64,000 bases of DNA from an uncultured Candidatus Saccharibacteria bacterium (GTDB lineage Bacteria; Patescibacteriota; Minisyncoccia; Phycocordibacterales; CSBR16-119). Numbering within the stretch: position 1 is the first letter of the stretch; every line of letters begins with the position of its first letter. Where the stretch lies: NCBI GenBank assembly GCA_964490365.1, contig CAZBAG010000001.1, positions 129,512-193,511 of the forward strand. Reading direction: 5' to 3'. Positions 7,667-24,169 of this stretch are shown here, piece after piece. Made by a program: the position numbers and the translations under genes. The notes under the pieces are model-generated. The model was not told where the DNA came from. It ran no database searches and worked only from the letters and a program-made list of their open reading frames with translations.

Positions 7667-7695
7667 TTGACAATAATAATTTAATATGTTATTAT
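7667..7695 (+). promoter_or_regulatory. Sigma70-like promoter TTGACA-17nt-TATTAT
   Basis: ttgaca at 7667-7672 and tattat at 7690-7695, followed by the C/A-rich leader caacgtaaaccaacacaacaacc and ATG at 7719. Confidence 0.6.
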
Positions 7696-21993: not shown

Positions 21994-22971
21994 TTATATA
22001 AAACCTACGAGTTTTTTTACTTCGAGCATTTTCTGTTGCGCTAAAATTTTAGCTTTTTTCTCCCCTTCTTCTAGAATAGCGTAAACTTTTTCTGGATTTT
22101 TCTGCAGTTCGTCATAACGTTCTTTCATCGGTGCAAAATATGCCAACACCTTTTCAAGCAACATCTTTTTGGCATCTCCATACCCCATACCACCCTCTGA
22201 TAAACCTCTTTCCATTGCTTTTTGCTCATCTTCTGTGGCAACAAGTTTATAGAGCTGATAGATAACAACCTCTTCTGGATTTTTCTTGTCTTCTGGATTT
22301 TTCGAATCGGTTACAATACCCATAACAGCTTTTTTAATCTCATCTTCAGAACCAAACAGCGGTATAACATTTTTATAACTCTTGCTCATTTTTTGTCCGT
22401 CTATTCCTGGTACCACAGCCACTTCTTCACGAATCATTTCTTTTGGCTCCTTAAAGACTTCTCCGAAAGCTTGATTAAATTTACGGGCAAGCTCTCGTGC
22501 CATCTCAACGTGTTGCGCTTGATCTTGTCCCACAGGAACAACATCTGCGTCATACATTAAGATATCTGCCGCCATAAGCACCGGATAATCAAATGTACCG
22601 ACATTTATTTCTTTATCCTTAGCTTCTGCGTCTTTAAAAGCATGAGCACGCATAAGCCATGGCATCGTTACAAGCGTATTGAGAATCCAAGTAAGCTCTG
22701 TATGTTCAGGTAAGGTTGATTGTCTATAGAGTGTCACTTTTTCAGGATCAAGCCCGACGGCAAGATATGCGCAGATTAAGTCAAAAGACAGTTTCTTCAT
22801 TTCTTCCCTGTTTGAGATAGAGTTTAGTGCGTGATAGTCAGCTAAAAACACATGCGAATCAAACTCACCAGAGTTTTGCATTTCTACGAATTGCTTTATC
22901 GCACCAAAATAATTTCCAAGATGGAGATTTCCTGTTGGCTTAATACCAGACACTAATATTTTTTTAGACAT
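21994..22971 (-). CDS. trpS: Tryptophanyl-tRNA synthetase
   Basis: The N-terminal sequence GIKPTGNLHLGNYFGA and the motif KMSKS; 325 aa. Confidence 0.9.
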   Translation of the reverse strand: MSKKILVSGIKPTGNLHLGNYFGAIKQFVEMQNSGEFDSHVFLADYHALNSISNREEMKKLSFDLICAYLAVGLDPEKVTLYRQSTLPEHTELTWILNTLVTMPWLMRAHAFKDAEAKDKEINVGTFDYPVLMAADILMYDADVVPVGQDQAQHVEMARELARKFNQAFGEVFKEPKEMIREEVAVVPGIDGQKMSKSYKNVIPLFGSEDEIKKAVMGIVTDSKNPEDKKNPEEVVIYQLYKLVATEDEQKAMERGLSEGGMGYGDAKKMLLEKVLAYFAPMKERYDELQKNPEKVYAILEEGEKKAKILAQQKMLEVKKLVGFI

Positions 22972-23003
22972 AGCGTTATTGTAACAAAATTCACTTTATA
23001 TAC

Positions 23004-23036
23004 AAAAAGAACCCCGCTCTGGTAAGGAGCGGGGTT
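23004..23036 (-). terminator. Hairpin terminator (aaccccgctc tggtaagg agcggggtt) ending a non-coding minus-strand unit
   Basis: On the minus strand the stem is followed by tctttttgta. It lies just upstream of the trpS start. Confidence 0.55.
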
Positions 23037-23371
23037 CCGGAGCGGGGATCACCTCTGTCACGCCTTCAACTTGGAACCAAGGTAAGGTTTTGGATACATT
23101 TGAATCAGGTTAAACAAAAGTTACCCCTACATTCTGCCCACAAAAAAGACGACCATTTTGCGGGGCAGCCAAAGAACGTCTGATCGTCGAAGAGAATTAT
23201 ACGCTTCTCTTATTAAAAATGAAAGAACCCATCGCCTTGGCGATGGGTTCTCAGTTGGGATTGCAAACCCCAGGAGAACTGCGATTCTCCAAACTGCAGA
23301 AAAATTTTTTGTGCGCGTGAGGTTGAATCTAACAACAGCTGCCGCCCCGTGGCGGGATTCAAAAGAACAGG
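23037..23371 (-). ncRNA. Candidate structured non-coding RNA (about 335 nt) transcribed from the promoter at 23378..23405
   Basis: No ORF of 60 aa or more on the minus strand. It is bracketed by a consensus promoter and a terminator. It contains long perfect hairpins (gaacccatcgcc/ggcgatgggttc, ccgcc ccgt ggcgg). G+C is elevated. Confidence 0.3.
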
Positions 23372-23377
23372 AATTTG

Positions 23378-23405
23378 ACTATATCATATTTAATATATTT
23401 GTCAA
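23378..23405 (-). promoter_or_regulatory. Sigma70-like promoter TTGACA-16nt-TATAGT inside the 23.0-23.7 kb gene-free gap
   Basis: The minus strand reads gacgcTTGACAaatatattaaatatgaTATAGTcaaattcc. Confidence 0.5.
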
Positions 23406-23410
23406 GCGTC

Positions 23411-23445
23411 TATAGAAACAACAAAGGAGCCTCTAAGGCTCCTAG
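23411..23445 (-). terminator. Hairpin (aggagcc ttag aggctcct) plus T-run on the minus strand
   Basis: The minus strand reads ctaggagccttagaggctcctttgttgtttc. It separates two ORF-less units. Confidence 0.4.
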
Positions 23446-23610
23446 GTTAGAAATTATTTCTCAATCTGGAGGGGCGCGAATCTCCGAATATGCCTTGCAA
23501 GAAATGATGGGTTCTCAGCCCTATTTCCTGTTTAGATTGTGAATATAACTCCTGTGAAAGAACTATTACGGCGGTCGTGACTGTGTCATCCGTTTTACTT
23601 TTTGTTTTGG
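23446..23610 (-). ncRNA. Second candidate ORF-less transcript (about 165-190 nt)
   Basis: It lies between a TTGACA box at 23640-23645 (minus strand, with a weak -10) and the hairpin at 23411..23445. No ORF is present. Confidence 0.2.
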
Positions 23611-23644
23611 ATTTACTTTTTAAACTATTTTAAAGAAAATGTCA

Positions 23645-23682
23645 AGAAAAAAGCCAAACTCACCTTGTGAGTTTGGCTTTTT
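23645..23682 (-). terminator. Hairpin terminator downstream of the 23698..24033 gene
   Basis: gccaaactcac cttg tgagtttggc with T and A runs on both sides. Confidence 0.55.
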
Positions 23683-23697
23683 AGTAGGCACGTTGAC

Positions 23698-24033
23698 CTA
23701 CTTCTTCTTCCCGGTCTTCGTCTTGTGAGTATAGACAGATGATCGACCGAGCGCAGTAGTAAGCTGTCCGAATGGAACAATTCGAAGTCTCTTTGTTCCG
23801 AGAAGATTGGTGATGTACCGACGATCACTGCCGTCGGGCTTTGGGGACTCATCCTGATAAGGACTTGCCATGGGACGAACCTTGGCGGTAGCACAGCCAG
23901 AGGTCGCATGGTCCACACGATCATCACACTCGTCTTCGAAAAACTTGAGGATCTCAGGAGATGCCACATCTTCATCGGCACCACCTTCTTGAACAACAAG
24001 AATCTTCTTGTCTACTACTTCTGTCCTAAGCAT
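23698..24033 (-). CDS. Hypothetical acidic protein (111 aa), GC-rich cassette gene
   Basis: The leader is aaaaaaaaccaaaccaaaccATG. G+C is elevated. The family is unrecognised. Confidence 0.5.
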   Translation of the reverse strand: MLRTEVVDKKILVVQEGGADEDVASPEILKFFEDECDDRVDHATSGCATAKVRPMASPYQDESPKPDGSDRRYITNLLGTKRLRIVPFGQLTTALGRSSVYTHKTKTGKKK

Positions 24034-24106: not shown

Positions 24107-24169
24107 ACTCTTTTTCCACTCTATCCACACAGAAACTTCTCACCACATCAATATGCTAAAATCAGACCA

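Follow-up and report, generated by a model that had tools for sequence, protein, structure and literature searches.

What is encoded in the 726-bp gap (22972-23697) that separates trpS from the next gene upstream in an uncultured Candidatus Saccharibacteria bacterium? We addressed this question in a 64-kb stretch of contig CAZBAG010000001.1 (positions 129,512 to 193,511; hereafter the window), where minus-strand trpS (21994-22971; Pfam tRNA-synt_1b) is preceded by a minus-strand 111-aa open reading frame (ORF) without family match (23698-24033). An earlier interpretation made without database searches, the sequence-only reading, had described the gap as gene-free and as containing two promoter-to-terminator units encoding candidate non-coding RNAs. 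We found three such units, A, B1 and B2. In our assessment they are somewhat better read than not as three adjacent, independently transcribed, lineage-specific small RNA (sRNA) genes, probably acting in trans, with A perhaps gated by translation.

Comparisons were made with the trpS neighbourhoods of 80 genome assemblies, whose loci are numbered with an L, and with further contigs obtained through 12 look-ups of homologues of the tryptophanyl-tRNA synthetase (TrpRS) at 75-88% identity. The nearest relatives of the window TrpRS are from Saccharibacteria, Patescibacteria and Paceibacterota assemblies.

Three promoter-to-terminator units in the gap

No minus-strand ORF of at least 60 aa is present in the gap, confirming that it is gene-free in this sense. 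Signals of transcription are frequent around it: between 22000 and 25000, 8 terminator-like sites were found where 2.8 were expected, and 10 promoter-like sites where 5.3 were expected. The strongest promoter, TTGACA-16-TATAGT with the TG of an extended -10 (23378-23405, minus strand), matches 11 of 12 consensus positions. A terminator scan recovered both hairpins previously pointed out, the trpS-proximal one (23038-23008, 12 pairs followed by a T-run) and a second one with a T-rich tail (23443-23425). The upstream TTGACA was found at 23645-23640, and its promoter is weaker by consensus than that of B1, as had been said. The perfect hairpin gaacccatcgcc/ggcgatgggttc lies at 23252-23223, and the G+C enrichment is real, if modest (0.45-0.475, versus 0.34-0.41 in the flanks).

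The number of units required revision. Since gaacccatcgcc is directly followed by TTTCATTTTT, the hairpin is an intrinsic terminator, and it was scored as one by the terminator scan; it lies inside what had been taken for a single 335-nt unit. A TATAAT box (23201-23196) is found downstream of it, and the two halves of the supposed unit have different homologues in other genomes. These three observations together show that the gap holds three units, not two. The upstream unit stands as described except for its length, which is about 200 nt from likely start to terminator rather than 170 nt. On the minus strand, each unit is thus predicted to have a promoter of the sigma-70 type at one end and an intrinsic terminator at the other, as expected of independent sRNA genes without a conserved ORF; the promoter is strong for B1, and those of A and B2 are weaker. 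Downstream of the B1 promoter, the 369 nt that cover B1 and B2 fold significantly better than shuffled sequences (z = -4.95; 0 of 100 shuffles as good).

Unit B2 (~23189-23004, minus strand; predicted RNA of ~185 nt) gave the best structural evidence. Its -10 box is the TATAAT at 23196-23201, which in the homologues L201, L204 and L208 forms part of an extended -10, TGTATAAT. The predicted RNA begins with a 5' strand, GACGAUCA (ACGACC-type; 23188-23181), followed by the invariant CGUUCUUU (23178-23171) and by a long hairpin (23168-23134). The apical loop of this hairpin, UGGUCGUC (23155-23148, GGUCGU-type), and the 5' strand are complementary. A rod domain of ~85 nt (23127-23044) and the terminator (23038-23008), with a conserved 7-nt loop CUUACCA (23026-23020), complete the unit. 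Separate minimum-energy folds of the four B2 homologues gave the same plan and helices. The helices closing the rod covary: GGGG/CCCC, GGAAA/UUUCC and GGAGA/UCUCC, and CUUUUGU/ACAAAAG with its variants. In the alignment of the 3' domain (rod and terminator), 87.9% of cells were paired; shuffles gave 79.7%, and none of 500 reached the observed value. Nine pairs had changed on both sides (1 of 500 shuffles), and controls in which the pairing partners were slid gave only 39-56% pairing. The pairing between 5' strand and apical loop is compensated in L204 (CGGCU/AGCCG versus CGACC/GGUCG).

Unit B1 (~23371-23213, minus strand; predicted RNA of ~158 nt) carries the heptamer GUUCUUU at 23368-23362, a 5' hairpin (23360-23325), two further hairpins, GGAGAAU..GUUCUCC (23290-23273) and GGGGUU-UGC-AAUCCC (23271-23257), and its terminator (23252-23223); there is no AUG in B1 upstream of the terminator. 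Its 3' half, consisting of the two hairpins and the terminator, is homologous to L212 2359-2479 (nhmmer E = 2e-8) and shares its architecture with L061 3700-3794. It is kept in three genomes counting the window, with a few compensations. An identical copy of the 26-nt B1 promoter occurs twice in L061. This promoter is of the general strong type of the clade, which protein genes use as well, and its pattern was of no use as bait in metagenomes, where it matched 120 unrelated loci and no homologue of the unit.

Unit A is predicted to be transcribed from a promoter at 23617-23645 (minus strand; TTGACA 23645-23640, 17-nt spacer, weak -10 TAAAAA 23622-23617) into an RNA of ~200 nt (~23611-23412). 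This RNA would comprise an A/C-rich leader, a mini-ORF, GUUCUUU, a branched rod domain (23553-23449) and a terminator (23414-23443, minus strand; AGGAGCC-UUAG-AGGCUCC followed by UUUGUUGUUU). The terminator is kept in five genomes, with stem changes that preserve pairing; the helices of the rod are kept mostly through one-sided changes and a few double changes. Homologues of A are 86% (L001/L202), 70% (L212) and 58% (L061) identical, and a partial one is present in L206. A 16-nt block, AAATAGTTTAAAAAGT (23616-23631, minus strand), which extends over spacer and -10 in the promoter of A, does not vary among the window, L001, L061 and L212. As this conservation exceeds what a promoter needs, and neutral sites are saturated among the four genomes, the block may be an operator.

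A 13-mer, CTGAGAACCCATC, is present both in unit A (23506-23518) and in the B1 terminator (23243-23255), in each case on the minus strand, suggesting exchange of sequence between units.

A strict promoter-to-terminator scan of the window bore out the proposal that RNA units and protein genes share one cassette grammar, and B1 was the sole ORF-less cassette it returned. Protein genes of the window have near-consensus TTGACA/TAnAAT promoters (e.g., 24106-24079, 7667-7695, 40139-40110 and 18538-18510) and short, A/C-rich leaders (AAACCAAACC-ATG) without Shine-Dalgarno sequence, and each gene is followed by its own terminator. This pattern confirms the one-gene-per-cassette layout of the window.

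Conservation and turnover among relatives

To what extent are the three units maintained? Between the genomes compared, four-fold degenerate sites of trpS are only 35-43% identical, indicating that neutral divergence is saturated. Identity nevertheless amounts to 69%, 65% and 58% between B2 and its three homologues, and to 86% (L001) and 70% (L212) for A. The difference from four-fold sites points to purifying selection on these non-coding units. Conservation well above saturated neutral sites, compensatory changes of paired bases and the lack of conserved ORFs uphold the proposal of non-coding RNAs in promoter-to-terminator format, with weaker structural support for A and B1 than for B2.

The composition of the spacer varies from one relative to the next. 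L001 and L202 have A followed by only the last ~60 nt of B2, and B1 is absent from L001. L212 has A and a B1-like unit, and L061 has both of these plus a further unit, C, which is also found upstream of trpS in L003. L206 combines the 3' end of A with a ~400-nt unit. B2 is accompanied by a ~430-nt unit, D, in L201 and L204, and stands alone in L208. Other units are present in L210, L213 and L215, and none directly upstream of trpS in L002, L211 and L214. Because presence and absence vary separately among relatives, A, B1 and B2 behave as independent modules.

Both the A and the B2 family are narrow in distribution. Run on 77 trpS loci that are more distant, covariance and sequence models of the two detected no copies, and B2 was found only in genomes whose TrpRS is at least 81% identical.

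Two further RNA-like elements lie in the dnaB-trpS spacer of relatives. Unit D (L204:945-1375, L201:41-417, L214:194-558, L207:2074-2361), which is lacking in the window, is conserved over ~430 nt; it has both a strong promoter and a terminator and carries GUUCUUU close to the 5' end. Nothing in Rfam or ARAGORN matched it. Module E (L204:164-390, L206:112-260, L212:2289-2360, L210:271-338) consists of GCUGGUCACCCC-hairpin-CCUUAAUGGACAAG...GACCAGUG and a GGGCUUGCAACCC hairpin. Since E is joined to different 3' parts in different genomes, the cassettes appear to evolve as mosaics; 5' and 3' modules are common to E, B1 and a unit labelled D'.

Such a pattern could also be left by decaying or selfish DNA without a function of its own: promoter and terminator modules would have been duplicated and recombined, and the remnants tolerated by a permissive spacer. 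Presence varies among close relatives, one copy is truncated (L001/L202), blocks such as CTGAGAACCCATC and the modules of E, B1 and D' are shared in mosaic fashion, and GUUCUUU coincides with a terminator 3' strand. Yet decay would not explain strong conservation against saturated four-fold sites, helices maintained by compensatory changes or the retention of near-consensus promoters. These genomes are very compact, B1 being the only strict ORF-less cassette returned by the scan of the window, and no further copies are present in the window, unlike what a multicopy mobile element would give. We consider this explanation improbable. A phage or mobile origin was likewise dismissed: there was no meaningful match in the phage collection searched, no other copy of a unit in the window, and two pattern scans of viral contigs were empty.

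Known RNAs, proteins and the relation to trpS

Could the units be divergent members of a known RNA family? The sequence-only reading had suggested that the 335-nt segment fits transfer-messenger RNA (tmRNA) or RNase P RNA in size, while failing to see their hallmark motifs by eye. At gathering thresholds no Rfam family matched, and no tRNA gene was found, anywhere in the 64-kb window. Relaxing the threshold to E <= 10 for 22900-23800 gave 30 weak, terminator-driven matches at chance level, none of them to tmRNA, RNase P RNA, T-box (RF00230), signal recognition particle (SRP) RNA or 6S RNA. Searching eight related loci with Rfam gave nothing relevant, and ARAGORN reported no tRNA, tmRNA or tag (0 genes in the window and the eight loci). 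With up to two mismatches allowed, motif scans found neither RNase P CR-I GAGGAAAGUCC (P4) nor CR-V ACAGAAnCCGGCUUA on either strand, nor the T-box 14-mer AGGGUGGNACCGCG, an SRP domain IV motif resembling GGAAGCAGCC or a T-loop (GGUUCRAnUCC). There is no conserved reading frame in B1 or B2 that could serve as a tmRNA tag. The absence of hallmark motifs was thus confirmed, and the identification as tmRNA or RNase P RNA is rejected, as is the argument from size, since 335 nt corresponds to two separate genes.

Three candidates of other kinds were also considered. Ribozymes were rejected on the negative Rfam (gathering and relaxed), ARAGORN and motif scans. A PyrR site was suggested by a weak Rfam match (E = 4), but the matching stretch is, by eye, not conserved in B2 homologues. 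For 6S RNA there was no Rfam match, and the folds of A and B2 show 5' domains with branched or irregular rods and lack a large central bubble; a very divergent 6S RNA is less strictly excluded.

It is accordingly very improbable that the units are highly divergent housekeeping RNAs of the tmRNA, RNase P, 6S or SRP type. In favour of this view, B1 and B2 together (~335 nt) approach the size of tmRNA or RNase P RNA, the strong predicted promoters would suggest high expression, and divergent 6S RNAs often evade covariance models. Against it stand the failure of Rfam and ARAGORN even at relaxed thresholds, the missing motifs and the two-gene structure. Moreover, A and B2 occur only in a narrow clade, and each unit is missing in some close relatives, unlike essential RNAs unless a second copy exists elsewhere. 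The likeness to tmRNA and RNase P RNA thus ends at the approximate combined size of B1 and B2: a tRNA-like domain, a tag frame, P4 and CR-I/CR-V are all lacking, and two genes are present where one would be expected.

Protein-coding alternatives fared no better, and we give them hardly any credence. Two frames are open in the window, an 85-aa ORF on the plus strand (23158-23415) and a 49-aa ORF on the minus strand (23362-23213). The former has no Pfam match and its region is missing in L001. The homologous stretches of L201, L204, L208 and L061 have stops in every antisense frame; in L212 an antisense frame is open for ~59 codons, but the resemblance is at the nucleotide level only and the alignment contains indels that are not multiples of three. 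Both ORFs cross terminator hairpins and begin with TTG, and there is no plus-strand promoter. Neither is conserved as a small protein, a B2 frame (MVVFFV...) is present only in the window and L201, and there is no conserved long ORF on either strand of the units. Hence, although Rfam gave no match, covariation was found and the plus-strand 85-aa ORF proved not to be conserved, so that the outcome named by the sequence-only reading as speaking against RNA did not materialise.

A more serious alternative is that the RNAs act in cis, as T-box-like or peptide-mediated leaders or attenuators from which regulated terminator read-through feeds trpS. All of the region shares its strand with trpS and lies immediately upstream of it. 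B2 adjoins trpS in all four genomes that have it (the window, L201, L204/L205 and L208/L209), besides the remnant in L001/L202, and its terminator ends 37 nt before the ATG. In Firmicutes, trpS is a classic T-box target. The ORF of unit A resembles that of a leader peptide, and the U-tract of the terminator downstream of it is interrupted.

The position of the trpS promoter argues against this alternative. A putative promoter specific to trpS (22971-23005, minus strand; TTGTAT 23005-23000, 16-nt spacer, extended -10 TGT-TACAAT with its hexamer at 22983-22978) lies between the B2 terminator and the ATG at 22971, which follows the -10 by 7 nt. With this spacing, the trpS mRNA is predicted to be leaderless. 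Relatives share the arrangement TTGTAT-N16-TGATAAAAT, in which the ATG begins 6-9 nt downstream. It is kept even in L002, L211 and L214, where no unit stands directly upstream of trpS, and in genomes where trpS comes straight after a protein gene and the terminator of that gene. In the window, A is parted from trpS by three strong terminators and two internal promoters. Unrelated units (C, D' and that of L215) hold the same position in relatives. T-box features are also lacking: besides the missing 14-mer and the missing Rfam match, inspection by eye, with no dedicated scan run, revealed no UGG fixed at an internal-loop position of the four B2 homologues, and the mini-ORF of A has no Trp codon. 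Nor was an alternative, mutually exclusive antiterminator structure found.

trpS has a conserved promoter of its own, both T-box features and a Trp codon in the mini-ORF are missing, and the occupants of the upstream position vary. Taken together, these points make it unlikely that the RNAs are classical trpS leaders, and we regard cis action on trpS in general as doubtful. The region resembles the T-box leader of trpS (Rfam RF00230) in being structured RNA upstream of trpS, on the same strand and ending in a terminator; it differs in lacking T-box sequence, specifier codon and Rfam match, and in the independent promoter that follows the terminator. Antisense regulation of trpS by B2 was also considered and rejected, as a 9-nt match within trpS (ACGUUCUUU/AAAGAACGU) is not kept in other B2 genomes.

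A different kind of trpS leader was seen in two relatives without B2, L207 (2380-2503) and L213 (2385-2503). Here ~115 nt of leader follow the same promoter, and a long hairpin, CCCGUUAGU...ACUAACGGGAUG, pairs with the start-codon region. This candidate translational regulator has no Rfam match.

On its upstream side the RNA region is bounded by the terminator of the 111-aa gene (23651-23679, minus strand; hairpin GCCAAACTCAC-AAGG-GTGAGTTTGGC followed by a T-run), and L001 has a terminator at the homologous position. The 111-aa protein (23698-24033, with homologues in L001, L204, L208, L212 and L214) is acidic and fast-evolving; its family has a single conserved block of the type P..G..DESP.P...LG. 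Beyond it, dnaB and recR lie on the plus strand. Between the promoter of the 111-aa gene and dnaB, the plus strand carries the DnaA-box-like sequences TTTTCCACT and CTATCCACA (24110-24137), and GTGGA-rich repeats resembling them occur at the same place in L207, L211, L002 and L061. No GC-skew switch was found here, so that a replication origin near dnaB was discarded and the sites are probably regulatory.

A shared heptamer, a mini-ORF and comparison with known systems

What might three such RNAs do? One feature common to them is GUUCUUU. Five copies lie within 550 nt of the gap, compared with ~31 in the other 127 kb, both strands counted. Two of the five are 3' strands of terminators; the other three are located near the 5' end of B1 (+4), near the 5' end of B2 (+17) and past the stop of the A mini-ORF. 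The four copies of B2 all have it unchanged, and in relatives it is also present near the 5' ends of C and D. Overall, each of the three units of the window and most types of related cassette contain it, and it is mostly predicted to be unpaired.

The second feature is the mini-ORF of unit A (23566-23589, minus strand), AUG ACA CAG UCA CGA CCG CCG UAA, which would encode MTQSRPP-stop. Its AUG is the first of the predicted transcript, and the leader before it, A/C-rich and unstructured, resembles the Shine-Dalgarno-less mRNA leaders of this genome. The homologous frames read MTQPRPP* (L001/L202), MKQIRPP* (L212) and MQIRPP* (L061); in L061 the AUG is shifted and the frame kept. Across these four distinct versions, a small sample, all variation in the Arg-Pro-Pro-stop part is synonymous (CGA/AGA, CCG/CCA, UAA/UGA). 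The pattern AUG...R-P-P-stop occurred seven times in the 2.7 Mb searched, six of them in copies of unit A. A Pro-Pro-stop mini-ORF is not a general feature upstream of trpS, as apart from the copies of unit A the search recovered a single chance match, within an unrelated GC-rich region. In its shortness, amino-acid conservation and synonymous variation, the mini-ORF agrees with what is expected of the reading frame of a leader or arrest peptide. GUUCUUU of unit A (23557-23563, minus strand) begins 3 nt past the end of the stop codon, 6 nt from its first base, and is predicted mostly unpaired (P = 0.81, versus a unit mean of 0.46).

These features suggest a model in which A, B1 and B2 belong to a lineage-specific, mosaic set of sRNA cassettes that would fill the dnaB-trpS spacer of a narrow Patescibacteria clade. 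The cassettes would be combined differently in each genome, kept by purifying selection and folded into conserved structures. Action in trans, as riboregulators that pair with other RNAs or bind a protein, appears the most plausible mode, with the exposed, pyrimidine-rich (C)GUUCUUU near the 5' ends of the window units, C, D and most other copies in relatives as the likely contact. In unit A, the 6-7 codon ORF ending in Arg-Pro-Pro-stop may be translated; a ribosome paused in the poor Pro-Pro-stop termination context would then cover GUUCUUU and make the activity of A dependent on its translation status. The predicted fold leaves the stretch that follows the stop codon unpaired from the outset, and the element downstream of A is another promoter, not a gene.

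Several observations count against this model of trans-acting sRNAs. We infer transcription of the units solely from consensus signals. The B2 promoter in the window has a weak -35 and lacks the TG, so that some B2 RNA may arise by read-through from B1. The fold of unit A is by itself not better than shuffles (z = -1.3), so that its support comes from conservation. With only 3-4 independent sequences per unit, the covariation statistics are weak, supportive rather than conclusive, and the 5' pseudoknot of B2 is backed by a single compensating lineage. The mini-ORF region can form a small hairpin, ACGG/CCGU, and constraint on the RNA could therefore explain part of its conservation. GUUCUUU is absent from the B1-like unit of L212 and from the units of L206 and L210, is predicted paired in two units, and is identical to the 3' strand of terminators of the clade (GGGGUUCUUU). 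It could be a functional contact, either a seed or a protein site, or else have been left behind by recombination at terminators. A role as seed for start regions was not borne out: its complement AAAGAAC shows no enrichment around the start codons of the window, trpS contains no conserved complementary site, and no target was found.

A bolder formulation would make the dnaB-trpS spacer a hypervariable island of recombining sRNA cassettes with a common 5' GUUCUUU contact, and unit A a new, translation-gated type of sRNA; we put it forward tentatively and think it rather unlikely to hold in full. If true, the activity of A would report on translation termination, elongation factor P or proline supply in an ultra-small symbiotic cell. 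Literature searches found no described small regulatory RNAs for Patescibacteria. As the genomes of these bacteria of the candidate phyla radiation (CPR) are tiny and have little spare DNA, 700 bp of non-coding DNA kept in one of them probably matters. If A, B1 and B2 are counted with C, D and E of relatives, several new RNA families would result, with boundaries that are defined and structures open to testing. They lie at one locus where RNA content turns over fast between close relatives. The Arg-Pro-Pro-stop mini-ORF offers a concrete candidate for a minimal arrest peptide in a poorly studied phylum. No known principle is overturned and no new one demonstrated.

How do the units compare with known systems? 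Proline-rich C-terminal contexts slow termination or peptide-bond formation; a C-terminal Pro-Pro induces SsrA tagging in E. coli, and uORF2 of cytomegalovirus ends in Pro-Pro-stop. TnaC is reported to arrest at ...RP-stop, with a proline-containing C-terminal motif (PMC8450073), arrest is documented for RAPP motifs (PMC10951233, PMC12992588), and a short peptide, PepNL, blocks termination (PMC11890864). Unit A is similar to these systems (TnaC, the RAPP-type ApdA/ApdP and PepNL) in its very short 5' ORF with a C-terminal Arg-Pro-Pro before the stop and in the regulatory-looking structure and terminator downstream. It differs in that its peptide of 6-7 residues would not suffice to fill the exit tunnel, which TnaC does, in that its motif is RPP-stop, not RAPP or RP-stop, and in that a promoter comes next where a regulated protein gene would be expected.

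Clusters of sibling sRNAs offer a second parallel: Listeria LhrC1-5, Vibrio Qrr1-5, the streptococcal csRNAs and Pseudomonas PrrF1/2. Like these, the window units are tandem short RNA genes with their own predicted promoters and intrinsic terminators, a common exposed pyrimidine-rich motif and a copy number that varies among relatives. Unlike these, they are not full-length paralogues and have only short modules in common. The usual anti-Shine-Dalgarno logic does not apply to them either, because mRNAs of this uncultivated CPR bacterium have no Shine-Dalgarno leaders.

Finally, unit A recalls the dual-function sRNAs SgrS/SgrT, RNAIII/hld and SR1/SR1P, whose encoded peptides of 26-43 aa have functions of their own. 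As in SgrS, RNAIII and SR1, a small frame is joined to a structured non-coding body; in unit A this frame has 6-7 codons and is more likely to be a sensor than a product.

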